Shown here piece after piece: positions 12,775-53,914 of a stretch of DNA of 57,818 nucleotides. The stretch's first letter is position 1; each line of letters starts with the position of its first letter. The stretch is taken from the IMG/VR virus record IMGVR_UViG_3300023214_000063, positions 1 through 57,818 of that record. The stretch is one strand, 5' to 3'. The notes beneath the pieces were generated by a model. It ran no database searches. It was not told the DNA's origin and was given only the letters and a program-made list of their open reading frames with translations. The stretch is from a virus. Lineage: Duplodnaviria; Caudoviricetes. The position numbers were made by a program, and so were the translations under genes.

Positions 12775-12962
12775 TGAAGAACTACGAACCGCACGACCAC
12801 ATGTGCCCGTACTGTCGGAAGCGGAAGCCGTGCCTGGCTCCGCAGCGTGGAGACTTCTGCATCTTCCCCAGCAGCGACGACATGACGTGTCCTGGGTGCG
12901 CTGTTCGCCACGCTCGACAGGTAGACGACACCGTGCATACTCCCGGCACTGCCGGTTCCTAG
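12774..12962 (+). CDS. Small Cys-rich (Zn-binding) protein
   Basis: CPYC...CPGC, coupled start. Confidence 0.5.
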   Translation: MKNYEPHDHMCPYCRKRKPCLAPQRGDFCIFPSSDDMTCPGCAVRHARQVDDTVHTPGTAGS

Positions 12963-12981
12963 CTGACAGGGGTTCAGATTC

Positions 12982-13886: not shown

Positions 13887-14102
13887 GTGAAGTTGAAGCT
13901 GAACGCGGACGTTCTGCGGCGCTGGCGCTGCGAGCACCTACCGGAGCACCTGGGGCAAGAATCGGTCAGCCAGACCGAAGCCGCAGCGCGCGTCGGGGTG
14001 ACGAAGCAGAGCTGGTATCGCTGGGAAAAAGGCTGGACCATCAGCGAGCCGTACCAGCGGCTGATACTGATGGCCATGCAGGCAACGGGGTTCAAGGCAT
14101 GA
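13887..14102 (+). CDS. XRE-family HTH protein
   Basis: SQTEAAARVGVTKQSWYRWEKG. Confidence 0.8.
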   Translation: MKLKLNADVLRRWRCEHLPEHLGQESVSQTEAAARVGVTKQSWYRWEKGWTISEPYQRLILMAMQATGFKA

Positions 14103-40879: not shown

Positions 40880-42454
40880 ATGAGTGATTCGACGCAAGTC
40901 GACCACACGCCGCAGGAGCTTCAGGACGCGGTACGCGAGCTGAAGTCCCTGACGGGTCGTATCGAGCAGCTGGAAGCGAGTTACGACGAACGCAACGGGA
41001 AGGGCGCGTCCGACGACGCGAAGCGCAAGGGCGACCCCATGGCACCGTTCGCGGAGCAGATGGAGTCGCTGGGCGAGCAGCTGAAGGATGTGCAGCAGAA
41101 GCTGCTGGACGGCGACAAGGCGCGGCGGACGAACGACGACGGCAGCCCGAAGGAACCGCAGCGCAAGGGCGAGCCGAATACCGACGACGCGCTGAAGGCG
41201 GCAGCCGACCGCATCGCAGGCGAGGGTGGCGGATTCAATCCGTTCGCCATCCGGGGGAAGAAGTACGGCTGGGCGAACAAGCCGGCGCTGAAGCAGCTGG
41301 CGGCGATGCCCACGGAGGAAGTCCGGCAGATCATGTCGGACGGCGAGTATGACGAGTTCAAGTCCGTCATGGAGCTGTCCGACCGCGTGTACCTGCTGGG
41401 CGCGCTCCTGAACGCCGATCCGCGCGACCCGACGGACGTGCGGACCACGAAGCTGTACGCCCAGCTGGACCGGAAGCTGAAGGCGCTGGACACGGCAGAG
41501 TCGGGTGGCGGTGCGGAGTGGATTCCCACCGGCTTCAGCTCGCAGCTGATCGACCGTATCGACCTGGAACTGGTCGTCGCCCAGGTCTTCCCGCGATTCA
41601 CGATGCCGACGAACCCCTACACCCTGCCGGTGGAAGGCGGGCACGTCGAAGCGTATCTGACCGGGGAGTCGACCGGAGACGGTGACGACGACAAGGTGAC
41701 GGCGGACGACGCCGGTACGCAGAAGGTGACGTACGACGCGGAGAAGCTGGCCGTGCGGTCGCTCGCGTCGTACGAAATCGAGGAAGACAGCATCATTCCG
41801 GTGCTGCCCTACATGCAGCGGAAGCTGGTGACGGGCCTGGCGCGGGGTGTCGACGACGCCATCATCAACGGCGACACGTCGGGCGCCCACCAGGACTCCG
41901 ACGTGACGGCCCCGACGGATCGGCGGAAGGCGTGGGACGGGCTCCGTGCGCTCGCGCTCGCGGACGCGAAAATCGACCTGTCCACCTTCAACGTCGAAAA
42001 CATCCGCAGCATCCGCAGCGCGATGGGCAAGTACGCCGCGCAGCCGATGGACAACGTGTGGTTCTTCGGCGTCCAGGGTCACATCCTGCTGCTGTCGCTG
42101 AAGGACAGCCAGAACAATCCGGTGGTCATCACCCTGGACAAGCTGGGGCCGCAGGCCACCATCCTGACCGGGATGCTGGGTTCGCTGGACGGTTCGCCGG
42201 TTCTCATTTCGGAGTTCGTCCGGGAGAACCTGAACGCCAGCGGCGTGTACGACGGGACGACCACCACGAAGAAGGTGGCTCTGAACGTCAACCGCCAGTG
42301 CTACAGCATGGGCGACCGTCGCCGCGTGATGGTGGAGACGGACCGCGACATCGAGCGCCAGCAGCACATCATCGTCGCGTCGTGGCGCGGCGACTTCCAG
42401 TGCTACTTCGACACCACGTCGGAAGACTGCGTCGGCCTGGGGTACAACTTCTAA
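40880..42454 (+). CDS. Major capsid protein (HK97 fold) with N-terminal scaffold/delta region
   Basis: Coiled-coil N-terminus, GGGAEWIPTGFS, AIINGD and GSLDGSPV. Confidence 0.92.
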   Translation: MSDSTQVDHTPQELQDAVRELKSLTGRIEQLEASYDERNGKGASDDAKRKGDPMAPFAEQMESLGEQLKDVQQKLLDGDKARRTNDDGSPKEPQRKGEPNTDDALKAAADRIAGEGGGFNPFAIRGKKYGWANKPALKQLAAMPTEEVRQIMSDGEYDEFKSVMELSDRVYLLGALLNADPRDPTDVRTTKLYAQLDRKLKALDTAESGGGAEWIPTGFSSQLIDRIDLELVVAQVFPRFTMPTNPYTLPVEGGHVEAYLTGESTGDGDDDKVTADDAGTQKVTYDAEKLAVRSLASYEIEEDSIIPVLPYMQRKLVTGLARGVDDAIINGDTSGAHQDSDVTAPTDRRKAWDGLRALALADAKIDLSTFNVENIRSIRSAMGKYAAQPMDNVWFFGVQGHILLLSLKDSQNNPVVITLDKLGPQATILTGMLGSLDGSPVLISEFVRENLNASGVYDGTTTTKKVALNVNRQCYSMGDRRRVMVETDRDIERQQHIIVASWRGDFQCYFDTTSEDCVGLGYNF

Positions 42455-42471
42455 GCCGCTGCGGCTGGGGA

Positions 42472-42522
42472 ACGACGGCGGGGTGGCCCGGACTTGCAGG
42501 ACGGGCCACCCCGGACCGTCGT
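42472..42522 (+). other. Stem-loop after the capsid gene (no U-tract)
   Basis: GGGGTGGCCCG/CGGGCCACCCC with an outer ACGACGG/CCGTCGT stem. Confidence 0.65.
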
Positions 42523-42542
42523 AACAAGGGGAGTCAAAGCTG

Positions 42543-43196
42543 ATGGGGGGAGCCACCCGCATCGTGGGATGCATGACCGCGTACGGCGACGACGTGTCGC
42601 TGCTGACGCGGTCTTTGTCGTCTCTGGCGGAATTCGCGGACCGGGTCGTCGTCGGTGTCGGTCGATACCGGGGTCACGAATCGGTCCCGGAAGAAGCGGT
42701 CGTCCAGACCATCGTTAACGCGCGCAAGTTCGACGCGGACGTCATCGTCGAAGACGTGTGGGACGAACGCGAAGCACGTACGCGAGTTGCGGCCGAAGCG
42801 TCGCCTGGCGACTGGTGTTTATGGGCAGACGCGGATGAAGTCTGGACGGGTGACCCGGCCCGGCTGCGGGCGCTGCTACCGGAGTTCGACCCCTGCGTCT
42901 TCGTGCGCTCGAAGCGCCCGCTGCGTCCGGACCTGTTCCCGCTGTGGGTGCCGAAGATGTATCGGTACGAAGTCGGCCACAGGTTCGTACACGACTACCT
43001 GGTGGTGAATGCCCACGGGCAGGCGGTTACCTACGTGCACGGGTCGCCACCGAAGAACAGGCCGCACGGAGATGGCTGCGAGCTGGACCCAGCCGTCGGC
43101 CAGATAGAGCACTACCGGGAAGAACGCGACCAGGTCCGCACGTCCATGACGGGCCGCTACCAGGTGAAGCGCCTTGACGATGGATACCCAGCCTGA
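42543..43196 (+). CDS. Glycosyltransferase, GT2/GT-A fold
   Basis: RSLSSL..FADRVVV, WCLWADADE (DxD) and IEHY. Confidence 0.75.
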   Translation: MGGATRIVGCMTAYGDDVSLLTRSLSSLAEFADRVVVGVGRYRGHESVPEEAVVQTIVNARKFDADVIVEDVWDEREARTRVAAEASPGDWCLWADADEVWTGDPARLRALLPEFDPCVFVRSKRPLRPDLFPLWVPKMYRYEVGHRFVHDYLVVNAHGQAVTYVHGSPPKNRPHGDGCELDPAVGQIEHYREERDQVRTSMTGRYQVKRLDDGYPA

Positions 43197-43860
43197 CGTC
43201 GCTGCCATCATCAGCGCGTACCGGCCACACCCGGCACAGCTCGCGCGGCAGCTCCGAAGCCTGAAGGCCCAGGAAGGCGTGGTCGTCCACCCGTTCATCC
43301 TCGAAGTCGGAGCCGAAGGTCCGTCCGGATGGCAGCTACCACCGGACGTCGACACCTGGTCGGAAGTCCACGTCTGCAGTTCCCGCGTGAACCTTCCGAT
43401 GGCGTGGAACTATCTGTGCATGGTGGCGTGGCCGGACTGGTGCGTCATCGCGAACACGGACGACTGGTGGGAGCCGGACGGCATCCGAAAGCTGGTGGAC
43501 CTGGCCGAAGACCAGGGCTCCAGCTTTGCTTATGGCGACGTCATGTGCCACGACGGGGAGCGGAACCCCTACAGCGGGGTGACGAAGCCGCACACGGTCA
43601 GCTCGATACGCGAGTCCGTGGACATCGGCTGCTGCGCCCTGTTCGCTCGCGAACGTCTGCTGGAGTTAGGCGGGTTCGACACCACCCTGGAAATCGCAGC
43701 CGACTGGGACGCATGGATTAAGCTGTCCGCCGACGGCATCGCCTACACGGCGGATATCGTCGGTCACTTCACTGTTCGTTCGGAGTCGCTATCGCACGCT
43801 GATCCGGCTGCACTTCGGGGCGAGCTGGCCAGAGTCCGGAGACGGTATAGGCATGGGTAA
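43180..43860 (+). CDS. Glycosyltransferase family 2
   Basis: IISAY, AWN, IANTDD and GGFDTTL..AADWDAWIKL. Confidence 0.82.
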   Translation: MDTQPDVAAIISAYRPHPAQLARQLRSLKAQEGVVVHPFILEVGAEGPSGWQLPPDVDTWSEVHVCSSRVNLPMAWNYLCMVAWPDWCVIANTDDWWEPDGIRKLVDLAEDQGSSFAYGDVMCHDGERNPYSGVTKPHTVSSIRESVDIGCCALFARERLLELGGFDTTLEIAADWDAWIKLSADGIAYTADIVGHFTVRSESLSHADPAALRGELARVRRRYRHG

Positions 43861-45916
43861 AAAGCTGCGCTACATGGGGCCGTTCCCGAAGTACCGTGGT
43901 CACCGGATGGTGGTGGAGCGTGGCGGCACATGCACCGTCGACGACGACCTGGCTGCGCAGCTGGTCGAAAAGAACCCCGGCTGGTGGGAAGACCTGACCA
44001 GCCCGGCCTACCAGGACGACGGGAAGCTGGAGCGATGGAATCCCGGTCCGACCCCGACGCGGAAGAAGGGGAGTGCCATAGACGCCCTGGTCGTCATCGT
44101 CCTGACGTGGAACCAGTGGAGCTACACGCGCCGCTGCCTGCCGTCTATCGAGTCAGAGCGACCCATGCGGGTCATCGTGGTGGACAACAACTCCACAGAC
44201 GGGACGCGCGAGCTGCTGGAACAGCTCCCTGTGGACGTAGAGCAGCCCCAGGGCCGCGTCGGCGTGGCTGCAGCCCTGAACGTAGGGCTGGAAGCTGCGC
44301 GAAGCTACACGCCGCGCTACGTGGCCATCCTGAACAATGACGTGGTGCTGCCGAAGGGCTATCTGGACGGCCTGGTCGCGATGCTGGAAGCCGACCCCAG
44401 CATGGGCATGGCGACCGGACTGCAGAGCATCCCAGGCGGACGGGGGGTGTCGAAGCCGGAGCTGGTGAAGAACCAGCAGGGCGAGCCCATCGACGACCGC
44501 GTCATCAGCGGCGACATGTCTGCCTTTGTTCTGGACTGGCGCGCTGTCCTGAAGGTGGGCACGTTCGACGAACGGTTCCGGCCGCGCTACATCGAAGACA
44601 ATGACTACGTGCACCGTCTGACCGTCGCGGGGTTCGAGCCGTACCGCACGGGCAGGTTCGTTTACGAACACTTCCACATGACGACCTATCGGGAGAATCC
44701 ACACCTAGCGAAGCGCCGGGAGCTGGAGCTGCGACGGAACGTGGAACGGTACGTGGAGAAATGGGGCGCGGCTCCGACGTCGTGCCAGCAGTGGCGTGAA
44801 GTGAAGACGTACCCTGACGACTGGACGTACGACGGGGGAGCCGACGAACCCCTGTGCGAGCCGGAGCCGGTGAAGGCCCGGCACGTAGCCATCGTTCAGC
44901 CGGGGCGACTGGGTGACATCGTCGCGACGCTCCCGCTGGCCCGCGTCCTGGGTCGCCGTAAGTTCAGGGTTCACTGGTACGCCCGCGAGCACTACGCCAG
45001 CATCTTCGAGCATGCGCAGTCGGTGCACGAAGTTCACGCCCTGCCGATGACGGGGGAGTCACCGTTCGACGGACTGGACGAACTCCGGGACCAGGTAGAA
45101 GCGGAGCGCTACGAATACGTCTTCAACCCGTGCATATCTGACGGGAAGTTCCAGGAGTTCGAGCGGTCGCCGTTGCCCTACGCGGATTTCCTGCAGGCGT
45201 CCGTAGGCGTCCAGTGGCCGAAGCGTCCGGAGTTCAAATACAAGCGCGACGACCGGGCGCTGGCGCGGCAGCTCGCCGGACGTGACGAACGGCCCGGCAT
45301 CCTGGTGGCTCCGTTCGGAATCAGCACGCCGGTCGTCCTGTCCGGCGAGCATAAGCAGGCCCTGAAGCGGATGTCGGAAGACTACGACCTGGCCATCTGC
45401 ACGGACGGGCAGACGTGGCCGGACCTACCTGGTGCCCGCAAAATCGGCAGGGTTCGCCCGCTGTCTCTGCTGGGGGCCATCGTCGGGGAATTCGACCTGG
45501 TCATCTGTGTGTCGACCAGCATTGTCTGGTTTGCCTACGCTGCTCGCGTTCCGACCATCCAGCTGCTGCCGTCGAAACCGTGGCGCTCCGGCATCAAGGT
45601 GGAACACGACTTCCAGAAGTACGGCGCGCACCAGTGGCATGACACGGACTTCGACGTGGTCGACTTCTTCCCGAACCACCAGACCGGAGACGCCTTCGAA
45701 GCGCTCGCGCGCGGCAGGCTCGAACACGCGGCGTTCGACGAACTGTTCCTGCGGGACTTTCCATTCCCAAAGCGGGAACCGGGTAAGGTTGCCGTGTTCT
45801 ACCCCGGACCCAGCAGCATCCATCCGGACGCAGGCATGCTGGCTACCGGCGTTAACATGCTGCCCAGGAAAACCGCCCGGCAGCTGATAGAAAAGGGAGT
45901 CGTGTTCGATGTATGA
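43853..45916 (+). CDS. GT2-GT9 fusion glycosyltransferase with small terminal domains
   Basis: GT2 part (VVDNNSTDGT, ILNNDV, FDERF..YIEDND) and GT9-like part (RLGDIV.TLP, DLVICVST..VW.A.A..VPT). Confidence 0.85.
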   Translation: MGKKLRYMGPFPKYRGHRMVVERGGTCTVDDDLAAQLVEKNPGWWEDLTSPAYQDDGKLERWNPGPTPTRKKGSAIDALVVIVLTWNQWSYTRRCLPSIESERPMRVIVVDNNSTDGTRELLEQLPVDVEQPQGRVGVAAALNVGLEAARSYTPRYVAILNNDVVLPKGYLDGLVAMLEADPSMGMATGLQSIPGGRGVSKPELVKNQQGEPIDDRVISGDMSAFVLDWRAVLKVGTFDERFRPRYIEDNDYVHRLTVAGFEPYRTGRFVYEHFHMTTYRENPHLAKRRELELRRNVERYVEKWGAAPTSCQQWREVKTYPDDWTYDGGADEPLCEPEPVKARHVAIVQPGRLGDIVATLPLARVLGRRKFRVHWYAREHYASIFEHAQSVHEVHALPMTGESPFDGLDELRDQVEAERYEYVFNPCISDGKFQEFERSPLPYADFLQASVGVQWPKRPEFKYKRDDRALARQLAGRDERPGILVAPFGISTPVVLSGEHKQALKRMSEDYDLAICTDGQTWPDLPGARKIGRVRPLSLLGAIVGEFDLVICVSTSIVWFAYAARVPTIQLLPSKPWRSGIKVEHDFQKYGAHQWHDTDFDVVDFFPNHQTGDAFEALARGRLEHAAFDELFLRDFPFPKREPGKVAVFYPGPSSIHPDAGMLATGVNMLPRKTARQLIEKGVVFDV

Positions 45917-46859
45917 CCGCATCGTCGTTACGGGTGGCGCTGGCTACGTCGGCCGCGTCACCGTGCCGCTGATCCTGCGCACCTTCCCAGGCGCACAGGT
46001 CGTCGTCATCGACAACTTCTGGCAGCGCCAGGAACCGCCGTTCGACTGGTTCAGTGATGCGTCGTGGCGTGACCGAATCGAGCTGCGCCAGGGCAACGTG
46101 GTGGAGTCCATCGACGACAGCTGGGGCGGCACGGATATCGTCGTCCACCTGGCCGGACTGGTCGGCGCTCCTGCCTGCGAAGCGAACCCGGAGCTGGCGG
46201 AATCCTGGAACTACGACAGCGCCTACAACCTCGCCTACAACTGGCGGCCGAAGCGGGTGGTGAACGCGAGCACCGGCAGCGTGTACGGGGCCATTGAAGG
46301 CGTGTGCACGGAGGAAAGCGACACGAACCCGCTGTCCATCTACGGGAAGTCGAAGCTGGCAGCGGAGCGCGTGCTGTGGGAACGCCTGGGTGGCATTCAC
46401 CTTCGGTTCGCCACGGGGTACGGGTGCAGCCCGAAGATGCGGCTGGATACGCTGCCGAACACCTTTGCCTGGGAAGCGCTCGCCGAAGGAAACCTGGTCC
46501 TGTACCAGCGTGACGCCCGGCGAACCTTCGTCCACGTCGAAGACATGGCGCGAGCCCTGGTTCACGCGATGGTCAACTATGAAAAGATGCAGCCGGGCGT
46601 GTTCAACGTCGGCAGCCATGACGGGAACATGACGAAGCAGGAGCTGGCGGACCTGGTCGCCGCGCACGCTCCGGACGGGCTGCGCATCTTTCACGGAGAC
46701 GGGGCTGACCCGGACCAGCGGGACTACGAAGTCAGCTACGGCAAGTTCACGGACACCGGCTGGGCTCCGGTGTGGACGATGGAGCGCGGGGTCCGGTCGC
46801 TGCTCGCGGCGCTGTCGTCGCTTCGGATTCGTGACCGGTATCGGAACAGTGGGGGATGA
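45909..46859 (+). CDS. NAD-dependent NDP-sugar epimerase/dehydratase (extended SDR)
   Basis: VTGGAGYVG, HLAGLVGAPAC, ASTGSVYG, YGKSK and RTFVHVED. Confidence 0.9.
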   Translation: MYDRIVVTGGAGYVGRVTVPLILRTFPGAQVVVIDNFWQRQEPPFDWFSDASWRDRIELRQGNVVESIDDSWGGTDIVVHLAGLVGAPACEANPELAESWNYDSAYNLAYNWRPKRVVNASTGSVYGAIEGVCTEESDTNPLSIYGKSKLAAERVLWERLGGIHLRFATGYGCSPKMRLDTLPNTFAWEALAEGNLVLYQRDARRTFVHVEDMARALVHAMVNYEKMQPGVFNVGSHDGNMTKQELADLVAAHAPDGLRIFHGDGADPDQRDYEVSYGKFTDTGWAPVWTMERGVRSLLAALSSLRIRDRYRNSGG

Positions 46860-46860
46860 C

Positions 46861-47853
46861 GTGGAGCTGAAGGGGAAGTCGGTAGCCGTCACTGGTGCTA
46901 CGGGATTCGTGGGTCGCCACCTGATCCAGCGCCTACTGGAAGCTGACGTGGAAAGCATCCATGTGGTGACGCGGAATGTGTCGCAGGCTGCGGCAGTGCT
47001 TCACGACGCCGTGGGGGTGGACCGCAGGCTGCTCGCGGTTCACTGCGACATCGAACGCCAGCTGGGACTGCTGGGCGCGCTGAAGGGGCTGCAGGTTGAT
47101 GTCCTGTTTCATCTGGCCGCGTACTACGGTGGCCTGGGCATCACGCTGGCCGAACCGGCTTCCATTTTCACGAAGAATGTGCGCATGGGCCTGAACGTCC
47201 TGGAAGCCAGCGCGGCCGCTGAAGTGGACAAGGTCGTGTTCTGCGGGACGGCATGTAGCTACCCTGGCGGCCTAGCGCCGGAGCCGATGGCGGAAGGCGA
47301 CTTCTGGTCTGGCCAGGTGCACGGCAGCGTGGAAGCGTACGGGGTGGCGAAGAAGGCGATGGAAGCCGGAGCCCGTGCCTTCGCGAACCAGCACGACATG
47401 CGAGCTGTGCACGTCGTACCGGCGAACCTTTACGGCCCGCACGACGACTTCGGCGACTATCGCAGTCACGTCGTAGCGGCGCTGGTCGCGAAGGCCGTGG
47501 CCGCATCGGAGTCCGGGAAGCCGATGAAGGTGTGGGGCTCCGGAGCGCCGGTCCGTGAGTTCATGTACGTGGATGACTGTGCGGCCGGTCTGGTGGCGGC
47601 AGCGGAGTCGTACGACGACATGGACGCGCCGTTGAACATCGGCACTGGCGTAGGCACGTCGATTCGCGAGCTGGTCGACGCCATCGCGGACGCTGTCGGC
47701 GGGCTCGAAGTGGAGTGGGAGTCGGACAAGCCGGACGGAGCGCCGCATAAGGTTCTGGACGTGACGAAGGCGAACGACCTGGGGTGGGCCGCAGGCGTGT
47801 CGCTCCAGGACGGAATCCGAAGCACGGTCAACTGGTACAGGGTGAACCGATGA
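46861..47853 (+). CDS. GDP-L-fucose synthase-like epimerase/reductase
   Basis: VTGATGFVG, HLAA..GG, GTACSYP, YGVAK, NLYGPHD, SHVVAAL, VWGSG.P.REF.YVDD and KPDG. Confidence 0.88.
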   Translation: MELKGKSVAVTGATGFVGRHLIQRLLEADVESIHVVTRNVSQAAAVLHDAVGVDRRLLAVHCDIERQLGLLGALKGLQVDVLFHLAAYYGGLGITLAEPASIFTKNVRMGLNVLEASAAAEVDKVVFCGTACSYPGGLAPEPMAEGDFWSGQVHGSVEAYGVAKKAMEAGARAFANQHDMRAVHVVPANLYGPHDDFGDYRSHVVAALVAKAVAASESGKPMKVWGSGAPVREFMYVDDCAAGLVAAAESYDDMDAPLNIGTGVGTSIRELVDAIADAVGGLEVEWESDKPDGAPHKVLDVTKANDLGWAAGVSLQDGIRSTVNWYRVNR

Positions 47854-49088
47854 AGCCGTACGTGACGATGTCGACATGCCGAAGGTGTGGCGGCGAAGAC
47901 CTGGTCCGGCAGTTCCGGATGGACGACGTGGCGATGACGGGGTACTTCCCCCTGCCGGGCGAGTCCGTCGCATCGGGTCCGCTGACCGTCATGCTGTGCG
48001 CGGACTGCATGCTGATGCAGCTGCGCGAGTCCTACCAGGTAGAGCTGATGTACACCGACACCTACGGCTACCACAGCTCGCTGAACGGGGCGATGGTGCG
48101 TCACCTGCAGGGACTGGCCGCAGAAGCGCTGCAGTCCTGCCACCTAGTTCCCGGCGACGTCGTGGTGGACGTGGGTGGAAACGACGGCACGCTACTGGAA
48201 GCGTTCCCGTCCTGGCTCGAACGCTGGAACGTCGACCCGCTGGCGGACCGATTCATGCCGAAGGAAACCGACATCCGGTGCCTGCCGGAGTTCTTCGACG
48301 ACAACGCAGTGGAAGCCATCGGTGAAGGCCGTGTGTCCGTTCTGACGTCCGTCGCGATGTTCTACGACCTGGACGACCCGGTAGCCTTTGCGCGCTCTGT
48401 GCGGCGACTCCTGCGCCCTGGTGGGGCATGGTTCTGCCAGGTCCAGGACACCGAACGGATGATGCGGGACGGGTTCTACGACACGCTCTGTCACGAACAC
48501 ATCGACTACTACCTGGTCCGCGACCTGGTCGACATCGCACGGCGGGCGGGCATGGAAGTGGTGTCGGTCAGGCGGAACGACTCGAACGGTGGCAGCTTCC
48601 GGGTGGAGATTCGAAACCACGAATCTCCGTCCCACGCGGTAGAGCGTGTCTGCATCGCAGAAGCGAAGCGTGTGGGCTCCACGTTCGACGACTACGTGAA
48701 GACCTGCCAGACGTACTTCGCGCGGGTCGTTCGCCACCGGGAAATCGTCCGTAACTTCCTGAATGCGGCGAAGGCAGAAGGGAAGACCGTCGCGGCCCTG
48801 GGTGCATCGACCAGGGGGAACGTCGTTCTGCAGTGGTGCGGGGTGACGCCGGACGACATCGTCGGAGTGGGGGAAATCAATCGAGACAAGTTCGGGCGCG
48901 TCACGCCTGGAACCGGAATCGGAATCAAGCCGGAAGGTGACATCATCGCCGCGCAGCCGGACTACCTGATGGTCCTGCCGTGGCACTTCCGCGCTGGGTT
49001 CGAGCGGCTGCACGGCCGTCTGTGTACCGACGACTGGAAGCCGCAGCTGGTCTTCCCGCTACCGGAGTTCGAGCTGTGGCCCGCATGA
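47850..49088 (+). CDS. NDP-hexose C-methyltransferase (Zn-binding N-domain, SAM domain, C-domain)
   Basis: CRRCG...CADC..MQL, YGYHSS, DVGGNDGTLL, YDTLCHEH, NGGS, GASTRGN and PDYLMVLPWHF. Confidence 0.88.
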   Translation: MKPYVTMSTCRRCGGEDLVRQFRMDDVAMTGYFPLPGESVASGPLTVMLCADCMLMQLRESYQVELMYTDTYGYHSSLNGAMVRHLQGLAAEALQSCHLVPGDVVVDVGGNDGTLLEAFPSWLERWNVDPLADRFMPKETDIRCLPEFFDDNAVEAIGEGRVSVLTSVAMFYDLDDPVAFARSVRRLLRPGGAWFCQVQDTERMMRDGFYDTLCHEHIDYYLVRDLVDIARRAGMEVVSVRRNDSNGGSFRVEIRNHESPSHAVERVCIAEAKRVGSTFDDYVKTCQTYFARVVRHREIVRNFLNAAKAEGKTVAALGASTRGNVVLQWCGVTPDDIVGVGEINRDKFGRVTPGTGIGIKPEGDIIAAQPDYLMVLPWHFRAGFERLHGRLCTDDWKPQLVFPLPEFELWPA

Positions 49089-49717
49089 CGAACGAACGGG
49101 CGTACGAATACGCCTTCACCTTTCGGGCTGTCGCTGACCACCTGGCCGGGCTCGAACCGGACGAACCCGTGCGGCTGCTGGATGTGGGCACGGCAGGCAG
49201 CCAGCTGCCGAACAACCTGGCCGACGTGTGGGTGGACCAGGTCGTCTGCTGCGACCCTGACTGCCGTGGGTTCGTCCGGATGCCCTGGCAGAACATCACG
49301 TACGTGGAAGCGACGGTCCAGGACTACGCGATGACGGAGCCGGAGCCGTTCGACATCGTTACCTGTGTCAGCACCCTGGAGCATGCGGAAGACGTGGAGT
49401 CGGCGATAGCTGCCATCGTCGACTTGATGAAGCCAGCCGGGCTACTGGTGGTGACGGTTCCTTACCACCCGCAGCGCACGCGGCTGTTCCCGGACCAGCA
49501 GGAGTTCACAGACCTGCGCCCGCTCCACGCCTGGTCGCGCATGTTCGAACGCCACGAACTGCTGCATGACCAGGAAGACGAACTGTACCTGCGGGCCTGG
49601 CGCTGGGTGAACGACGAAGATGGGGTGCCGGTGACGTTCGAGCGCGAGCGATGCCGGGCCGTAGACGACGACGCCCAGGACGACAACATCATCTGCATGA
49701 CATGGACGAGGCCATGA
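49085..49717 (+). CDS. Class I SAM-dependent methyltransferase
   Basis: NERAYEY, LLDVGTAG, FDIVTCVSTLEH and MKPAGLLVVTVP. Confidence 0.82.
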   Translation: MTNERAYEYAFTFRAVADHLAGLEPDEPVRLLDVGTAGSQLPNNLADVWVDQVVCCDPDCRGFVRMPWQNITYVEATVQDYAMTEPEPFDIVTCVSTLEHAEDVESAIAAIVDLMKPAGLLVVTVPYHPQRTRLFPDQQEFTDLRPLHAWSRMFERHELLHDQEDELYLRAWRWVNDEDGVPVTFERERCRAVDDDAQDDNIICMTWTRP

Positions 49718-49953
49718 AGAAGTCACTGGGGGAGCTGGTCGACGAACTGGCCATCACGAATTTGAAGATGTGGCACTTGGAAGACCGACGCCGCGACACG
49801 ACGCTGCCGGATTCGGAGCGCCTGAAGGCAGCGGACGCGCTGTCGCCGCTGAACGCGAAGCGCCATCGTCTGATGGAAGCTATCGACGCCCTGGTGCCAC
49901 AGGAAGATGCGCACCAGAAGGTGCCCGTGTACGAAGGCGAGCCGGTCGGCTAG
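49714..49953 (+). CDS. DUF4254-like small helical protein
   Basis: LVDELAITNLKMWHLED..R...LN.KR..L..AID; this pattern is associated with GT9/sugar loci. Confidence 0.6.
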   Translation: MKKSLGELVDELAITNLKMWHLEDRRRDTTLPDSERLKAADALSPLNAKRHRLMEAIDALVPQEDAHQKVPVYEGEPVG

Positions 49954-49997: not shown

Positions 49998-50258
49998 ATG
50001 GCGAAAGTCAGCATGAAGACCGTGTACTACGACGGCGACAGCGCGCAGGTTCACCCGGCCGGGTTCACCCTGCAGCCAGGGAAGAACGTGCTGTCGAAGC
50101 CGATGGCAGAGCTGGCGTGCAAGCTGGTGGAAGGCTGCACGATGGGCACCGGCCCGAAGGGGGTCACGTCGTCGAAGAAGAAGAAGGCGACGAAGAAGTC
50201 CGCCAGCTCGAAGTCCACGAAGAAGAAGAAGTCCACGAAAAAGAAGAAGAAGAAGTAG
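49998..50258 (+). CDS. Small head-module protein with Lys/Ser/Thr-rich tail
   Basis: GGAGG RBS; N-domain similar to the GT fusion C-terminus; tail SSKKKKATKKSASSKSTKKKKSTKKKKKK. Confidence 0.65.
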   Translation: MAKVSMKTVYYDGDSAQVHPAGFTLQPGKNVLSKPMAELACKLVEGCTMGTGPKGVTSSKKKKATKKSASSKSTKKKKSTKKKKKK

Positions 50259-50267
50259 GGGGCATCG

Positions 50268-50837
50268 GTGGCGCTGGTCACGCTGGAAAAGACGCTGCAG
50301 TACCTGAAGGAATCGGAAGACCGCGACGACGTGGTCCAGGCGATTCTGGATGGTGTCTCTGCGGAGTTCGAGTCCCGAACTAACCGTGTGTTTGCCCAAG
50401 CGAACTACACGGACGCGCTGGACGGTGGGTGCAGCTACGTGCTGGTAGAGAACCCGCCCATCATCAGCGTGACGTCGGTGCACGAATCGAACTCGATACC
50501 CGCCGTCTTCAACGCGACGACCCTGGTGGACGCCGACACGTACGTCAGCTACGCAGGCGAAGGTCGCGTCCAGCTCCTGGGCGCTCGCGCACGGTTCGCT
50601 CGCGGTTATCAGAACGTCCAGGTGATTTACTCCGGTGGCTGGGTGACGATTCCTGCGGACGTCCAGCTGGCGGTCATGCGCTGGGTGGGGCACATCTGGA
50701 AGGAAGAAGATACGGCGCGCTTCGGCCTGCAGGGTCGGTCGTTCGAGGGGCAGCAGGCCCAGTTCGTCCCGCCACCGGAAGTTCCACCCCAAATCATGCG
50801 GGTCATCCGGCTGTATCGCCGACCGTCGACGGGGTAG
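50268..50837 (+). CDS. Head-tail connector (gp6/gp15-like)
   Basis: ALVTLE...YLK...D..., PPIISVTSV and Y.GGW..IPADVQLAV. Confidence 0.82.
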   Translation: MALVTLEKTLQYLKESEDRDDVVQAILDGVSAEFESRTNRVFAQANYTDALDGGCSYVLVENPPIISVTSVHESNSIPAVFNATTLVDADTYVSYAGEGRVQLLGARARFARGYQNVQVIYSGGWVTIPADVQLAVMRWVGHIWKEEDTARFGLQGRSFEGQQAQFVPPPEVPPQIMRVIRLYRRPSTG

Positions 50838-50840
50838 CGC

Positions 50841-51353
50841 ATGCCGGTCCCAATAGTTCGAATCCGGATCATCGGCGACGACGCTATGCGCCTGATCCAG
50901 CGATACCCGAACGTGGTTGCGGCGACGCTTCAGGCCACCACCCTGACGGTCATGCGCGACATCGTCTGGTCCCGCGTCAAAGCGAACCTGATGGGCGCGG
51001 TCCTGAACCGACGGTCCGGTAACCTGCTGCGCGACGTAGAGTCCAGCATCCAGGTCCGGCGCACGTTCAAGGGCGTACAGGGAACTATCGGGACCAGCCT
51101 GGACTATGGAATCGCGTGGGAGCTGGGCGCGCAGTTCCCGGCGTATAACATCACCCCGAAGAAGGCGACATTTCTGCGGTTCATCGGAGCGCGGGACGGG
51201 GCAGTGGTGTTCACGAAGCTGGTGGAGCGAAAGCCGCGACGGCAGGAAAAGCGTTCGTTCATCGTCGAAGCCTTCGAAGCGCGGATGGTGGATATCGAAC
51301 GCAAGTACGTCGCGGACCTGAACAGGCTTCACGACCAGATAGGGGTGGCCTGA
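50841..51353 (+). CDS. HK97 gp10-like neck/tail completion protein
   Basis: RSGNL..., YGIAWELG and RSFI..AFE. Confidence 0.7.
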   Translation: MPVPIVRIRIIGDDAMRLIQRYPNVVAATLQATTLTVMRDIVWSRVKANLMGAVLNRRSGNLLRDVESSIQVRRTFKGVQGTIGTSLDYGIAWELGAQFPAYNITPKKATFLRFIGARDGAVVFTKLVERKPRRQEKRSFIVEAFEARMVDIERKYVADLNRLHDQIGVA

Positions 51354-51823
51354 TGCCTGATCCGACCATCAGTCACCGGCAGGAAATCCGGGACGACATC
51401 GTCGCGAACCTGAAGGCGATAGCCCAGGTGGACGGCTACTTCTACGACATTAACGACGACTACGTCAGCACGGAGCTGACCCACTGGGAAGCCTGGTCGT
51501 CGTCGAAGACTCCGGCCCTGTTCGTGGTGGGCGGCGATGAAGCGCCGGACCCCAGGACGAACCAGACCTACGAATCAGAAATGACGGTCGTGGTGTGGGG
51601 GTACGTGCACGAACCAGGCAGCTCGCAGGACGCGCTGGACAAGCTGGTGCACGATGTCATCAAGAAATTGATGGAAGATATCCAGCGGAACTGCTGGGCG
51701 GACTTCACCCAGCTGGGGCAGCTGACGACGGACGAAGGGAACATCAACGTGGTGGCGAAGGGCTGGGCGCTGTTCCGGATGGAGATTCTGGTGCAATACG
51801 ACTTCTTCACGAACAATCCGTAG
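51353..51823 (+). CDS. Tail terminator protein
   Basis: RQEIRDDIVANL...PALFV..GDE...LD.L..DV.K.L; position in the neck module. Confidence 0.7.
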   Translation: MPDPTISHRQEIRDDIVANLKAIAQVDGYFYDINDDYVSTELTHWEAWSSSKTPALFVVGGDEAPDPRTNQTYESEMTVVVWGYVHEPGSSQDALDKLVHDVIKKLMEDIQRNCWADFTQLGQLTTDEGNINVVAKGWALFRMEILVQYDFFTNNP

Positions 51824-51851: not shown

Positions 51852-52835
51852 GTGCACGTTGACTTCTACACGCCACATAGCGGCGCGGGCCGCGAGTTCG
51901 GGTACAGCACCTTCACCGACGCCGTCCGACGTCACTGGCTGGAGCTGGGCCACACCATCGGTGACGATGCGCCGGTCCGCGTAGCGTTCTGCCACCCGAA
52001 GTCGTTTCAGCGCGACGAACGGCCTACGGCGTTGTTCAGCATGTACGAAGCGCCGGACATGCCACGGGAGTATGTGGAGCCGCTGAACCAGGCTGACGCG
52101 GTCATCGTGCCCACGAAGTTCTGCCGGGATATCTTCAAACGGAACGGAGTCACCAGGCCCATCCACCTGTGCCCGTTAGGTATCGACGGCGACCTGTTCT
52201 ACCCTGACCCGGCGAAGACGCCACCGGCTCCCCCGTACCGGCTGCTATGGCTAGGGGCTCCGGACTTGCGCAAGGGGTGGGACATCTTCGCGCGTGGCTT
52301 CATGGCCGCGTTCAGTCACAGCGACGACGACGTCAGGGTCACGTTCAAAACGTCGGCGAAGCACACAGAGCAATTCGAAGAATTGGTGCCGGGGGTCACG
52401 TTCGACTGCCGACGCCTGCCGCGTGAAGAACTCGCCGACCTGTATCGACGTCACCACATCTTCGTGACGACGACGCGCGGCGAAGGATATGGGCTCCCCC
52501 CACTGGAAGCGATGGGAACTGGCTCCCTCGTCATCGCTCCAGTGGCGGGGGGCCTGTCTGATTTCGTAGTGCCGGGCCGCGCGCTGACGTTGAAGACGAA
52601 GAAGCGTCGCGTACACTTCGGGGTGCCGACCACGGCCGATGAAGTGAAGCACGGTAGCCTGGTGTCGCAGCTGAAGCGGGCCGTGCGAAACTACGACCAG
52701 TTTAGGGGCACGCGGGAGCGGGCAGTAGAATGGGTGCACGCGAATCGAACGTGGAGCCACACAGCGCGGAGACTTCAAGAAATAACGGGAGCTATTTTCG
52801 GTCCAACTGGGGGAGCCGGTAGGGACGCGAAATGA
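51852..52835 (+). CDS. Glycosyltransferase family 4 (GT-B)
   Basis: PLGID, RKGWD, LADLY and EGYGLPPLEAMG (E-X7-E). Confidence 0.88.
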   Translation: MHVDFYTPHSGAGREFGYSTFTDAVRRHWLELGHTIGDDAPVRVAFCHPKSFQRDERPTALFSMYEAPDMPREYVEPLNQADAVIVPTKFCRDIFKRNGVTRPIHLCPLGIDGDLFYPDPAKTPPAPPYRLLWLGAPDLRKGWDIFARGFMAAFSHSDDDVRVTFKTSAKHTEQFEELVPGVTFDCRRLPREELADLYRRHHIFVTTTRGEGYGLPPLEAMGTGSLVIAPVAGGLSDFVVPGRALTLKTKKRRVHFGVPTTADEVKHGSLVSQLKRAVRNYDQFRGTRERAVEWVHANRTWSHTARRLQEITGAIFGPTGGAGRDAK

Positions 52836-53914
52836 GTTGCGGAAGCGGCGTAGGCGCGACAGCGCTGGCTGGGTTCCAGAAGAACACGAACGGCTGGGAC
52901 GACGGCACGGCCGAACAGGTGGATGCCGGGTTCGGCTTCGAGTACCTGTCGGAGTCCATCAGCTACGATGTCCCGCACATCCGGGACGAATCGAACGCGG
53001 GCAGCGTCCAGCAGGGACGCGGCGAGCGCGGGAACGAACGACACGACGGCGGCATCACGGCGTACGCGAAGTACGAAGGTCTGGACGAAATCATCGCCCA
53101 GGCGTTCGGCAGCGTGGAGTCCGGACCGGCCCAGCAGGCCAGTTCGGCGGCCTATCAGACCGTCTACCGCATCAACGATTGTCCGGACGGCATCTTCGGC
53201 ACCCTGGTGTTCGAGAAGCGGAAGGACAACCGGGTGTGGGAATACGACTGCGTCAAGGTCGTGGGGCTCCGCATCAGCGGCGAAGCCGGGCAGCCTGTCC
53301 AGGTGGAGTTCACCGTAGCCGGGCGTCGGCTGAAGCGGAACGCGGGCACGGGCGTGAACACCACCACGACCATCGACAGCGTGACCATCCCGGCGAACCG
53401 GAAGAAGGTGCATTTCAACCACCTTCAGCTGCTGATCGCGGCGCAGTCCGACAGCACGGCTCTGGACGCGGAAGACGAGTCGTACCCGTCGCGGTTCGAG
53501 CTGACGATGGAAGGCCAGTTCGACACGGACATCTTCACCACGAAGAACAAGCCGTACCGTGACGAGCCGAAGCGTAACGGCCATGTGCTGACCACGCTGA
53601 CGCTGGAGTACCCGGAGTATGACGGGGAAGACTGGCTGGACCGTCATTCCGCCGACCCGAAGACGCTGCTGATGGCGCAGATGACGTTCGACAGCGCGCT
53701 GGACGCGGGTGGCGGTAACAACTTCAGCTGGGTGTTCGACATGGCCCAGCTGGAAGTCAGCGAAGCGGCCGCGAACATCGCGGGCGCGGGCCTGATCCGT
53801 CACCCCATCACCCTTATCGCCACGAAGGCGGATAGCGCCCCGCAGGGGTTCAGCTTCGCCGACCAGCTGGTGATGACGGTGGTAAACCAGATGAGCACCG
53901 ATCCGCTGGCGTAA
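52832..53914 (+). CDS. Major tail tube protein
   Basis: 360 aa, YLSESI motif, upstream of the chaperone and TMP, followed by a stem-loop. Confidence 0.75.
   Translation: MSCGSGVGATALAGFQKNTNGWDDGTAEQVDAGFGFEYLSESISYDVPHIRDESNAGSVQQGRGERGNERHDGGITAYAKYEGLDEIIAQAFGSVESGPAQQASSAAYQTVYRINDCPDGIFGTLVFEKRKDNRVWEYDCVKVVGLRISGEAGQPVQVEFTVAGRRLKRNAGTGVNTTTTIDSVTIPANRKKVHFNHLQLLIAAQSDSTALDAEDESYPSRFELTMEGQFDTDIFTTKNKPYRDEPKRNGHVLTTLTLEYPEYDGEDWLDRHSADPKTLLMAQMTFDSALDAGGGNNFSWVFDMAQLEVSEAAANIAGAGLIRHPITLIATKADSAPQGFSFADQLVMTVVNQMSTDPLA

Follow-up and report, generated by a model that had tools for sequence, protein, structure and literature searches.

What does a set of sugar enzymes do inside the head and tail operon of a phage, and to which molecule would their product be attached? 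This question is raised by a 57,818-nt viral contig (IMGVR_UViG_3300023214_000063; the whole stretch analyzed, hereafter the window), in which an eight-gene sugar island on the + strand separates the major capsid gene from the head-tail adaptor gene.

A sugar-gene island between capsid and connector

The major capsid gene (40880..42454, + strand; PF05065, E 1e-13; phrog_10, E 1.5e-18) encodes a 524-aa HK97/T5-like protein with an N-terminal scaffold-like region and 23–31% identity to T5-like capsids. The island that follows encodes three GT-A glycosyltransferases (GTs), two SDR-type enzymes, a C-methyltransferase, a SAM methyltransferase, and a DUF4254 protein. An 86-aa ORF (49998..50258, +) with GGAGG in front, a Lys/Ser/Thr-rich C-terminal tail, and no Pfam or PHROG match separates it from the head-tail adaptor gene (50268..50837, +; phrog_442, E 4e-27; PF24163, E 1e-4). 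Further downstream are the genes for the tail terminator (51353..51823, +; PF23818 and PF23840, E 2e-4 to 8e-4; phrog_4204, E 6e-6) and the 360-aa tail tube protein (52832..53914, +; PF18906, E 1e-6). A preliminary description of this DNA had proposed both the eight co-oriented genes and their capsid and connector flanks; matches to Pfam, NCBIfam, and PDB bear out the former, and the family matches given above the latter.

Consecutive island genes are separated by −17, −8, −8, +1, −4, −4, and −4 nt, and thus mostly overlap. A ninth gene, encoding a GT4 enzyme, overlaps the start of the tail tube gene by 4 nt. The late, co-oriented, translationally coupled placement claimed earlier is supported, as is the combination of donor-sugar tailoring enzymes with several GT domains. 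A scan of the + strand from 39 to 55 kb yielded no promoter-like site and no U-tract terminator beyond chance. Codon usage does not differ between the island and the remainder of the phage (GC3 0.81 versus 0.82 and 0.85; r 0.95–0.96), indicating that the island has long belonged to the operon.

The preliminary description also stated that no U-tract terminator follows the capsid gene. A terminator scan of 42454–42543 indeed found no U-tract site, but a very stable GC-rich hairpin without a U tract (42472..42522, +) had been overlooked in this gap. The 94-nt intergenic fold that holds it has a predicted energy of −51.7 kcal/mol (z −4.75), and none of 200 shuffles was as stable. The hairpin is possibly an attenuator or an RNA-stabilizing element. 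The island would share transcripts with the flanking head and tail genes, although the hairpin might keep its expression below that of the capsid gene.

Glycosyltransferases and donor-sugar tailoring enzymes

The locus encodes five GT domains in all: one each in GT_a, GT_b, and the GT4 enzyme, and two in GT_c. GT_a (42543..43196, +; 217 aa) is a small GT-A (GT2-like) enzyme with a marginal Pfam match (PF13704, E 0.0046) and a match to phrog_7009 (E 7e-6). Its GT-A fold is assigned from ESM Atlas structure neighbors, which are GT2 clusters (TM 0.71–0.79), and from a WADAD (DxD) motif at residues 94–98. GT_b (43180..43860, +; 226 aa from the ATG, the longest ORF beginning at TTG 43174) is a GT2 enzyme (PF00535, E 4e-6; PF13641, E 1e-3) with no PHROG match. 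GT_c (43853..45916, +; 687 aa; PF00535, E 9e-18) consists of an N-terminal GT2 domain (∼residues 80–315), which belongs to phrog_29879 (E 2e-12), and a C-terminal GT-B, GT9-like domain (∼residues 336–683). The GT9-like half matches TIGR02193 over 55 residues (345–399; E 2e-7) and, by Atlas structure (TM 0.64), a cluster that is 100% PF01075; residues 320–687 alone have no Pfam match, even at E 5. Sequence relatives of GT_c are nearly absent, with three weak matches in 5.8e9 proteins and seven in 1.8e9 representatives. The GT4 (GT-B) enzyme (51852..52835, +; 327 aa; PF20706, 5e-10; PF13692, 7e-10; phrog_2170, 2e-26) has homologs in 130 phage records (127 Streptomyces and three Rhodococcus). The GT assignments made earlier hold for GT_b and the GT2 domain of GT_c and are weaker for GT_a and for the half of GT_c labeled GT9; the count of four GT domains is correct within the island but missed GT4 as a fifth.

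SDR1 (45909..46859, +; 316 aa; PF01370, E 1e-25) is an extended SDR that aligns over its full length with PDB 6vo6 (E 8e-58; next best match 4e-13), which we take to be Cj1427. It carries YGKSK at the YxxxK motif, and its ASTGSVYG motif lacks the acidic pair at the position that presumably marks dehydratases. We propose from these sequence features that SDR1 is a Cj1427-like NDP(GDP)-sugar C4-dehydrogenase. SDR2 (46861..47853, +; 330 aa from GTG 46861, the longest ORF beginning at 46831; PF01370, E 4e-51) is a GDP-L-fucose-synthase-like 3,5-epimerase/4-reductase. It matches the E. coli GDP-fucose synthetase GMER (1bsv/1e6u) at E about 2e-48 to 3e-48, scores 207.7 bits against NF047922 (under the 500-bit cutoff), and has T, C, Y, K, and H at the positions of GMER S107, C109, Y136, K140, and H179.

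The ATG start of the NDP-4-keto-sugar 3-C-methyltransferase gene (47850..49088, +; 412 aa; PF08421, PF13489, and PF08484) overlaps the SDR2 stop. PDB matches of the enzyme include 4rv9, annotated as 'D-mycarose 3-C-methyltransferase' (3e-42), TcaB9 (5e-34), and 5t64 (2e-28). At least 6956 homologs were found at E ≤ 1e-30, the best with 44–45% identity, and relatives also occur on GVMAG contigs. The class I SAM methyltransferase (49085..49717, +; 210 aa; PF13489, E 2e-12; PF08241, E 3e-9) matches UbiG-type PDB entries over 50 residues only; we propose that it may be a sugar O-methyltransferase. The last gene (49714..49953, +) encodes a 79-aa DUF4254 protein (PF14063, E 2e-7), a putative accessory of C-methyl-sugar modules. 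A DUF4254 ORF lies immediately upstream of the C-methyltransferase in three of 80 viral loci, and another lies within a branched-sugar cluster of the megaphage LR756501.

Judged by its sequences, the enzyme set is chemically coherent, comprising a C4 oxidase-like SDR, a 3-C-methyltransferase, and a GMER-like enzyme with T/C/Y/K/H kept. Contrary to the earlier suggestion, the system is not self-contained. No sugar-1-P nucleotidyltransferase (PF00483) was found within the window, nor was a 4,6-dehydratase; because PF00483 is absent from the window and the acid pair of dehydratases is missing from SDR1, NDP-sugars must come from the host. The enzyme families suggest a route in which three soluble enzymes would take up a nucleotide sugar from the host pool (probably GDP-hexose or GDP-heptose) and turn it into a donor with a methyl branch. 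In this route, SDR1 would oxidize C4 in the manner of Cj1427, the TcaB9/MtmC-type enzyme would then methylate C3 of the 4-keto intermediate, and the GMER-like SDR2 would epimerize the product and reduce C4. The five GT domains could assemble a short glycan, to which the SAM methyltransferase might add O-methyl groups. To our knowledge, no C-methyl branched sugar has been described on DNA, which counts against DNA as the acceptor.

Candidate acceptors of the glycan

On positional and comparative grounds, the island is best read as a late-expressed, phage-encoded module for glycosylating the virion, with a probability of about 0.55. The glycan would be assembled in the cytoplasm directly on nascent virion proteins, most likely capsid and tail tube subunits. 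We presume that the major capsid protein is one acceptor and the tail tube protein a second; the glycan may serve in shielding or adhesion. One point against this reading comes from the mycobacteriophages, whose glycans are reported at the C-termini of capsid and tube: the capsid protein here lacks a C-terminal extension, and its end is conserved in an alignment of relatives with and without GTs.

The preliminary description had looked to synteny in related phages, and siphophages both related and unrelated, Corndog included, do repeatedly carry GT cassettes in their capsid-to-tail block. Of 44 capsid relatives from IMG/VR that have 4 kb or more of downstream sequence, six carry GT genes within this block (L022, L024/L002, L025, L052/L004, L080, and L090, the last on weaker evidence). 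Their cassettes are not orthologous to that of the window; the position is recurrent, the sequence is not. L002 has a GT_a homolog between portal and protease (phmmer 1e-7; same PHROG). The block lacks GTs in the other 38 relatives, so the trait is dispensable.

Alternatively, soluble GTs and a branched-sugar donor could act at the cytoplasmic face on a glycolipid or wall polymer of the host (LPS core or O-antigen, a teichoic acid or arabinogalactan-like polymer, or capsule), hiding receptors on infected cells and on debris, or converting the serotype of lysogens. GT9-like and GT4/GT2 enzymes are characteristic of loci for LPS and the cell wall, and GT_c and the relatives' GTs weakly match 'GtrB-like O-antigen conversion' PHROGs (E 0.003 to 2e-7). 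A tyrosine recombinase gene (14099–14965) suggests that the phage may be temperate, and comparable GT clusters in cyanophages are usually ascribed by their authors to host-surface or DNA modification. Nonetheless, we consider envelope remodeling unlikely. The island encodes no membrane protein of any kind and no flippase, polyprenyl-phosphate GT, polymerase, or exporter; no membrane segment is predicted in any island protein. Because GTs of the LPS core, GT9 among them, are peripheral proteins, the absence of membrane segments is compatible with lipid-linked acceptors. However, the genes are translationally coupled within a late structural operon and do not form a separately oriented moron. 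Moreover, placement inside this block recurs in unrelated phages and, in the report on Corndog, serves virion glycosylation.

A distinctly smaller chance attaches to another soluble acceptor, either a non-structural phage or host protein or a small molecule (a natural-product-like aglycone), for which the late operon would supply timing only. C-methyltransferases of the TcaB9/MtmC/KijD1 type are familiar chiefly from pathways that make antibiotic deoxysugars, and viral loci pair the C-methyltransferase with an Fcl-like gene in 46 of 80 cases and with a capsid gene of this lineage in none. However, the ORFs scanned include no aglycone-forming genes (PKS, NRPS, and the like), the five GT domains point to an oligosaccharide on a macromolecule, and the recurrent position in structural operons would be left unexplained. 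Glycosylation of hydroxymethylated phage bases against restriction is very improbable: phage GTs that place diverse glycans on DNA have been described (Pyle et al. 2024) and base-modifying genes could lie outside a contig that is ∼56% complete, but no thymidylate-synthase-like hydroxymethylase (PF00303) was found within the window and the island sits in the structural operon, apart from the replication genes at 10–34 kb.

Comparison with known systems

Virion glycosylation by the phage's own enzymes is best compared with Corndog and Che8, whose enzymes are reported to O-glycosylate the capsid and tail tube, with the glycans located at the C-termini of both (Freeman et al. 2023). Like the island, Che8 gp108–110 and Corndog gp35–38 comprise a methyltransferase and several GTs; in Corndog, a co-oriented MT-GT-GT-GT cassette lies among the head genes, two genes before that for the capsid. 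The relation is one of analogy, not membership, because the window GTs share no PHROG family with these enzymes. None of five window proteins shares a PHROG with the seven mycobacteriophage proteins scanned, and the window GTs have no BLASTP match to Corndog proteins. The island is also larger (8+1 genes, five GT domains), the mycobacteriophage cassettes listed here lack SDR and C-methyltransferase genes, and no Mycobacterium phage record is among the matches listed for the C-methyltransferase, SDR1, and SDR2. The complex virion glycan proposed earlier finds partial support in gene content, placement, and comparative pattern, but not in PHROG-level homology to proven enzymes.

The slot itself, previously said to hold small head proteins as a rule, is already occupied by GTs in deposited phages. 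Pontimonas phage phiPsal1 (MG835450) has the order capsid, group 1 GT, SAM methyltransferase, GT2, neck, tail completion, and tube, and Synechococcus siphophage S-CBS4 (NC_016766) has portal, hypothetical protein, GT, 'galactosyl transferase', and SAM methyltransferase genes upstream of protease and capsid. These cassettes have three genes each and lack donor-sugar tailoring enzymes. By tblastn, their GT2s match that of an unrelated siphophage contig, L139 (IMGVR_UViG_3300050501_000417), whose GT2 belongs to phrog_29879, the family of the GT_c N-terminal domain. L139 encodes MT-GT2-C-methyltransferase-GT4 between connector and tail-completion/terminator genes, with a SAM methyltransferase, a C-methyltransferase of 38% identity (best segment), and a GT4 of phrog_2170, a family also found in the L004 cassette. 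It differs from the window in portal family (PF06381 versus PF04860), GC content (54% versus 65%), and gene order; it has no SDR or DUF4254 genes, and its cassette lies in the neck region, not beside the capsid gene.

Branched-sugar clusters closer in content occur in Synechococcus myophage DSL-LC02 (GDP-mannose dehydratase, C-methyltransferase with 33% identity, and a GDP-fucose synthase-like enzyme, then seven GTs and an FkbM methyltransferase) and in LR756501 (SDR, DUF4254, FkbM methyltransferase, and two C-methyltransferases). DSL-LC02 has a true 4,6-dehydratase where the window has the Cj1427-like SDR. Unlike the island, both clusters lie outside the structural operon, which by analogy we count against a virion acceptor.

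The pathway logic resembles that described for capsular heptose modification in Campylobacter jejuni, in which Cj1427 is the C4-dehydrogenase, Cj1430 the epimerase, and Cj1428 the GMER-like C4-reductase: a GDP-sugar is oxidized at C4 and a GMER-like reductase acts last. The island differs in having no cupin epimerase and in placing a C3-methyltransferase between oxidation and reduction. Giant viruses (chloroviruses and mimivirus) encode their own nucleotide-sugar tailoring enzymes and GTs and glycosylate their particles independently of host machinery; these are eukaryotic viruses, with capsids and enzymes unrelated to those of this phage. Among phages, virus-encoded virion glycosylation has so far been shown only in a few mycobacteriophages, and the island would extend it. 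The capsid-GT-connector arrangement is already known; what is new is a putative route for tailoring the donor sugar (C4 oxidation, C3 methylation, and epimerization/reduction) inside a structural operon.

The structural gene block and its sugar island

The window is an entire IMG/VR virus record of 57,818 bases. It is linear, about 56% complete by CheckV, and has a G+C content of about 65% throughout; all of its recognisable genes lie on the + strand. Replication and recombination genes (an SNF2 helicase, a tyrosine recombinase, RecT, a RuvC-like protein, DnaB and SSB) are upstream of the structural block. The latter comprises the large terminase, TerL (34565–35887), a portal–MuF fusion (36130–39324), a protein with an N-terminal protease-like part (39573–40841), the major capsid protein (40880–42454) and, beyond the island (42543–49953), an 86-aa basic ORF (49998–50258), the head–tail adaptor (50268–50837), a 170-aa ORF, the tail terminator (51353–51823), a further glycosyltransferase (GT) gene termed GT4 (51852–52835), the tail tube (52832–53914), two chaperone-like ORFs and the tape measure (from 54797). 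The portal–MuF fusion is a single 1064-aa ORF with portal and MuF-like head-morphogenesis domains; its last ∼300 residues, beyond about residue 755, lack a family match. Two very large ORFs of 584 and 1161 aa occupy the contig start (2–5248). The 584-aa ORF has an open 5′ end and is in another frame, and the 1161-aa ORF matches the LVIVD beta-propeller repeat; should the genome be circularly permuted, both could be distal tail proteins or receptor-binding ones.

The window has no near relative among isolated phages: a megablast search of 50,697 phage records found no near-identity match to the 13-kb block, and the capsid protein shares 23–31% identity with T5-like capsids. TerL was rejected as a guide to the host, as its best isolated-phage matches fall below 30% identity and infect unrelated hosts. 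The MAG labels of capsid-bearing GTDB loci (Thermotogae, Acidimicrobiaceae, Thermomicrobiales, Bacteroidales) were likewise set aside as unreliable. In the phage-record search, GT4 relatives are restricted to Streptomyces and Rhodococcus phages, no more than a hint of an actinobacterial host. Three DNA runs from one study, one of them possibly the source, contain a 9.4-kb stretch of the window, and no RNA run was found to contain it.

All eight island genes of the preliminary description are present where it placed them. Six have firm Pfam assignments: GT_b (PF00535), the two short-chain dehydrogenase/reductases SDR1 and SDR2, the C-methyltransferase, the SAM methyltransferase and DUF4254. The first gene, GT_a, is marginal in Pfam (E 0.0046); it carries a WADAD motif, and the ESM Atlas model of its exact sequence has GT2 clusters as neighbours (TM 0.71–0.79), many of them viral. 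An AlphaFold2 model of GT_a built without an alignment reached a mean pLDDT of 40 and was discarded. GT_c had been described as a GT2–GT9 fusion. Its N-terminal GT2 half is secure (PF00535, E 9e-18) and its GT9 half less so: residues 320–687 have no Pfam match at E ≤ 5, and a short TIGR02193 match scores 30 bits against a GT9 heptosyltransferase cutoff of 185. At TM 0.64, the Atlas model (whole-protein pTM 0.44) matches a cluster composed 100% of PF01075 members, and virus-dominated clusters are also among its neighbours. Together the TIGR02193 match and these structural neighbours provide a lead, and a lead only, to a GT9-like C-terminal half. Among 5.8e9 proteins GT_c has matches at the level of the GT2 domain only, and among 1.8e9 representatives its C-terminal half has seven (E 8e-5 to 6e-4). 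Four GT domains were originally counted in the island; a fifth, GT4 (PF20706, PF13692; phrog_2170, E 2e-26), had been overlooked beside the tail tube, where its gene runs 4 nt into the start of the tube gene. Against PDB, GT4 and the SAM methyltransferase have generic partial matches only.

With the likeliest starts, the island junctions measure −17, −8, −8, +1, −4, −4 and −4 nt, and ATGA overlaps join SDR2 to the C-methyltransferase, the C-methyltransferase to the SAM methyltransferase, and the latter to DUF4254. Codon usage in the island is indistinguishable from that of the structural and early genes, so the island is not an assembly chimera, nor did it arrive recently. The reported lack of a U-tract terminator behind the capsid gene was borne out, though the 88-nt spacer contains a very stable hairpin. 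This GC-rich, U-tract-less element (42472–42522) lies right after the capsid stop codon, and the 94-nt capsid–island fold has −51.7 kcal/mol and a z of −4.75. Terminator-like sites between 39 and 55 kb are not above chance (12 observed, 8.8 ± 2.8 expected). A role as attenuator, or in stabilising the capsid mRNA, would be consistent with the hairpin, which could set the ratio of capsid to downstream expression. Behind the island, the 86-aa ORF (49998–50258) has a GGAGG ribosome-binding site and no family match, and its last ∼30 residues are nearly all Lys, Ser and Thr; its product might bind DNA, be an internal protein of the head or serve as an extra glycosylation substrate.

Donor-sugar enzymes and a candidate route

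The C-methyltransferase has the complete three-part architecture of NDP-hexose 3-C-methyltransferases (TcaB9, MtmC, KijD1), with an N-terminal Zn-binding domain (PF08421, 5e-8), a class I SAM domain (PF13489, 2e-12) and a C-terminal PF08484 domain (1e-31). It aligns end-to-end with solved 3-C-methyltransferases (4rv9, 3e-42 over residues 29–419; TcaB9, 5e-34; 5t64, 2e-28) and has thousands of bacterial homologues at 40–45% identity. TcaB9-type 3-C-methyltransferases act on NDP-4-keto sugars.

SDR1 matches PDB 6vo6 at E 8e-58 over residues 3–311, the next best solved relative reaching 4e-13. Its YxxxK motif is kept, YGKSK aligning with YGIDK of 6vo6. That entry is titled 'Putative sugar-nucleotide epimerase/dehydratease', and we take it to be Cj1427, an alpha-ketoglutarate-recycling enzyme that acts as the C4-dehydrogenase of GDP-D-glycero-D-manno-heptose. 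The 4,6-dehydratases bear an acidic pair at the position equivalent to ASTGSVYG of SDR1, which has no such pair. Cj1427 chemistry is treated in PMC10680097 and PMC7949155. We propose that SDR1 is a Cj1427-like GDP-sugar C4-dehydrogenase, which would oxidise without dehydration; the missing acidic pair is the one indirect sign of this.

SDR2 matches E. coli GDP-fucose synthetase (Fcl, GMER) at E 3e-48. In NF047922 it scores 207.7 bits over residues 72–337, under the 500-bit equivalog cutoff, and by sequence it is best described as Fcl-like, not an Fcl equivalog. Cys109 and His179 of GMER are its epimerisation residues. At the positions of GMER Ser107/Cys109/Tyr136/Lys140/His179, SDR2 has T/C/Y/K/H; PMC7949155 names Ser/Thr107-Tyr136-Lys140 as the catalytic triad.

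Given these enzyme families, C4 oxidation followed by C3 methylation and epimerisation/reduction is the simplest coherent route. SDR1 would oxidise C4 of a host GDP-sugar, the C-methyltransferase would add a methyl group at C3, and SDR2 would epimerise and reduce this intermediate, giving a 3-C-methyl sugar, not necessarily a 6-deoxy one. We infer GDP as the nucleotide and a hexose or heptose as the sugar. The 210-aa SAM methyltransferase, whose matches are generic only, could O-methylate this sugar. The window has no NTP_transferase-type sugar-1-phosphate nucleotidyltransferase and no dehydratase, so the island is not self-contained, contrary to what had been suggested.

Single-protein IMG/VR scans with the C-methyltransferase or GT_c gave no pattern match. 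An alignment-based scan with the C-methyltransferase returned 508 viral stretches; among the best 80, three, all of them large viral contigs, have the C-methyltransferase directly preceded by a DUF4254 ORF (L105, 9685–11212; L108, 9394–11197; L110, 9694–11221). In a 735-kb megaphage (L102, LR756501.1 308000–330000), DUF4254 (10304–10555 of the locus) lies between an SDR and an FkbM methyltransferase, near two C-methyltransferases. These contexts suggest that DUF4254, 79 aa long in the window, is an accessory of C-methyl-sugar synthesis. The megaphage sugar cluster spans roughly 18 kb. Besides the two C-methyltransferases it encodes TPP-dependent E1/transketolase-like pieces, a radical-SAM/SPASM enzyme, FkbM and other methyltransferases, STELLO-like and Fringe-like GTs and a NusG homologue.

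Just six of the 50,697 phage records carry the C-methyltransferase: one is from a cyanomyophage, four are from huge phages and one is a faecal contig. SDR2-like genes occur in 121 records, mostly from cyanophages, and SDR1-like genes in 78. No Mycobacterium phage is among the organism names listed for SDR2 (all but seven), the lone 'Mycobacterium' row being a bacterial M. avium record, and no Mycobacterium is among those listed for SDR1 (all but one).

In its fullest form, the proposal is a dehydratase-free phage route (Cj1427-like C4 oxidation, TcaB9-type C3 methylation, GMER-like epimerisation/reduction, DUF4254 as its dedicated accessory) leading to a GDP-linked 3-C-methyl hexose or heptose, undescribed for any virus particle, that five GT domains would put on the capsid and tail tube. 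We offer this full scheme tentatively and consider it doubtful as a whole. It gives DUF4254 a testable context, and the three-enzyme route could be reconstituted in vitro from synthetic genes.

Glyco-cassettes in the structural genes of other phages

A single-protein IMG/VR scan found capsid relatives at 35–39% identity in five loci, and in two of them the capsid-to-tail block includes sugar genes. Those of L002, straight after the capsid gene, are two GT2 genes, two methyltransferase genes and a UDP-glucose-dehydrogenase-like gene; in L004, three GT1-type genes stand ahead of the adaptor. An alignment-based scan then returned 224 capsid relatives. The best 80 were retained, and in 44 of these the sequence downstream of the capsid gene extends for at least 4 kb. 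These loci were screened by phmmer with known sugar proteins and by Pfam on 147 ORFs of 190–650 aa (plus one of 824 aa) from 39 previously unannotated loci. GT genes lie inside the block in six of the 44 loci. Several of the 44 are near-duplicates and hence not independent. The Pfam screen excluded 16 ORFs >650 aa and all ORFs <190 aa, and where small genes are concerned the count is a minimum. The survey of relatives suggested in the preliminary description has recovered capsid–GT–connector synteny. The six are L022 (a sulfatase and a double GT2), L024 (= L002), L025 (whose GT9+GT1 fusion begins 56 nt past the capsid stop), L052 (= L004), L080 (a GT2-TPR gene, 10651–11880, directly after the capsid gene) and L090, counted solely because of its resemblance to the L004 GTs, which are themselves weakly supported. 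In L002, L004, L025 and L080 the cassette comes before the phrog_442 adaptor, and in L022 it comes after it. Because the relatives' cassettes are not orthologous to that of the window, the slot has been filled repeatedly.

L022 is the closest capsid relative of the window (45% identity). Its sulfatase-family gene (12136–13419) sits beside the double-GT2 gene inside the structural block, a hint that the glycans may be sulfated or that another chemistry operates. An insertion of six residues in a capsid loop (KDSQNN-type, residues ∼410–418 of the window capsid) occurs in three of seven GT-bearing loci (the window, L024 and L025) and in three of 38 in which no GT was found (L030, L043 and L073). 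We dropped it as a glycosylation-linked feature; its distribution probably reflects phylogeny. A GTDB capsid-alignment scan gave 12 loci, and no GTs were found in the best four, which were annotated. In three of these four the capsid gene has an apparently non-phage or remnant context. On three MAG contigs, capsid genes of this lineage are followed by HTH regulators and an integrase (L010, 1979–7388) or by cellular genes (L012 and L013), in place of connector and tail genes; such loci could be satellite-like elements or the remnants of prophages.

Phages of other lineages have cassettes in comparable places. No capsid gene of the window's lineage lies near a C-methyltransferase in the best 80 of the 508 viral stretches. 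One of these 80, L139, comes from a siphophage of another lineage, with a portal of family PF06381 and GC 54%. It has a SAM-methyltransferase fusion, a GT2 (phrog_29879), a C-methyltransferase and a GT4 (phrog_2170), flanked by head–tail adaptor/connector genes on one side and by tail-completion and terminator genes on the other. Its GT2 and GT4 belong to the same PHROGs as the GT_c N-terminal domain and the window GT4. A tblastn search with the L139 GT2 led to two GenBank phages. Pontimonas phage phiPsal1 has the order terminase, portal, protease, capsid, group 1 GT, SAM methyltransferase (on the opposite strand), GT2, neck, tail completion and tube. In Synechococcus siphophage S-CBS4, the portal is followed by a hypothetical gene, a GT, a 'galactosyl transferase' and a SAM methyltransferase, then protease and capsid. 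The deposit of phiPsal1 came with the remark that this phage 'will not be further discussed' (PMC6106888).

With capsid–GT–connector synteny already in GenBank phages, the structural slot is not the unusual placement it had been thought to be. Since virion glycosylation by phage GTs is also known, the finding is not categorically new. In the literature searched, which did not cover Freeman et al. 2023, no sugar C-methyltransferase or donor-tailoring pathway was found linked with the structural operon of a phage or with glycosylation of virions. The window island is the largest and chemically most elaborate structural-operon glyco-cassette in this survey. Together, the window, L139, phiPsal1, S-CBS4 and the six of 44 relatives suggest that cassette swapping into the block is a general siphophage habit across several host phyla, and that some siphophages produce their own exotic branched sugars. 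If the 3-C-methyl-sugar reading is true, glyco-cassettes in structural operons would be a widespread, modular and exchangeable source of particle-surface variation for environmental siphophages. Cassette swapping and branched sugars of this kind would bear on the shielding and targeting of phage particles in nature, on phage-surface engineering for therapy and on the search for new sugar-tailoring enzymes.

The acceptor, and comparison with known systems

We favour the reading that the island is a virion glycosylation module, with a probability of roughly 0.55. Of the original virion-glycan interpretation, placement and comparative pattern stand, and self-containment and the unusual slot do not. 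TPR modules bind proteins, and the TPR part of the L080 GT2-TPR gene would fit a protein acceptor, as would that of the GT2-TPR proteins of Bacillota seen among the Atlas neighbours of GT_a.

The island products might instead remodel the host envelope, which we think improbable. No membrane component of the serotype-converting Gtr/O-antigen type (flippase, bactoprenol-linked GT, integral membrane GT/acetylase) was found in the island by hydropathy: the maximum 19-residue Kyte-Doolittle value of its proteins is ≤1.91, with peaks inside Rossmann-type domains. This argument is tempered by the GT9, GT4 and GT2 enzymes that act in LPS and wall pathways, which are themselves soluble or peripheral. 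The phage also possesses a recombinase, GT_c and GTs of the relatives have weak GtrB-like PHROG matches, and the authors of cyanophage studies prefer an envelope role for their own clusters. Coupling of the island to late structural genes weighs against envelope remodelling, and the Corndog precedent points the opposite way. A soluble, non-virion acceptor is possible but less probable still. Glycosylation of DNA is unlikely, even with 44% of the genome unseen, given the location of the island and zero matches to the PF00303 hydroxymethylase (thymidylate-synthase fold) in the 57.8-kb record; the control was positive in 10 of 14 genomes.

Two known systems bear comparison with the island. Cyanomyophage DSL-LC02 combines a GDP-mannose dehydratase, a C-methyltransferase and a GDP-fucose-synthase-like gene with seven GTs and an FkbM methyltransferase. 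Unlike the window island, this cluster adjoins hli and nucleotide-metabolism genes, not structural genes.

The second is that of the mycobacteriophages, the only phages in which, to our knowledge, virion glycosylation has been shown, and in a few of them only; it reportedly relies on simple GT/methyltransferase cassettes and host-made donor sugars. Published work reports that the Corndog and Che8 enzymes modify both the capsid and the tail tube, with glycans at the C-termini of the capsid and tube subunits. A PHROG scan of seven mycobacteriophage, five window and eight related-locus proteins placed Corndog gp35–38 and Che8 gp108–110 in PHROGs 6608/8858, 4447, 1721 and 854 and the window proteins in 7009, 29879/2456, 2170 and 4752, with GT_b in none. 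As the families differ, the window is not a member of the Che8/Corndog enzyme set. Corndog gp34–39 gave no BLASTP match to window proteins at E ≤ 1e-3, and no SDR or C-methyltransferase was found in the Che8 and Corndog stretches viewed. In Corndog, gp35 (a methyltransferase) and gp36–38 (GTs) are co-oriented between gp34 and gp39, upstream of capsid gp41; the window cassette is likewise co-oriented within the head gene block, between capsid and adaptor. The resemblance to Che8 and Corndog is one of organisation and presumed function.
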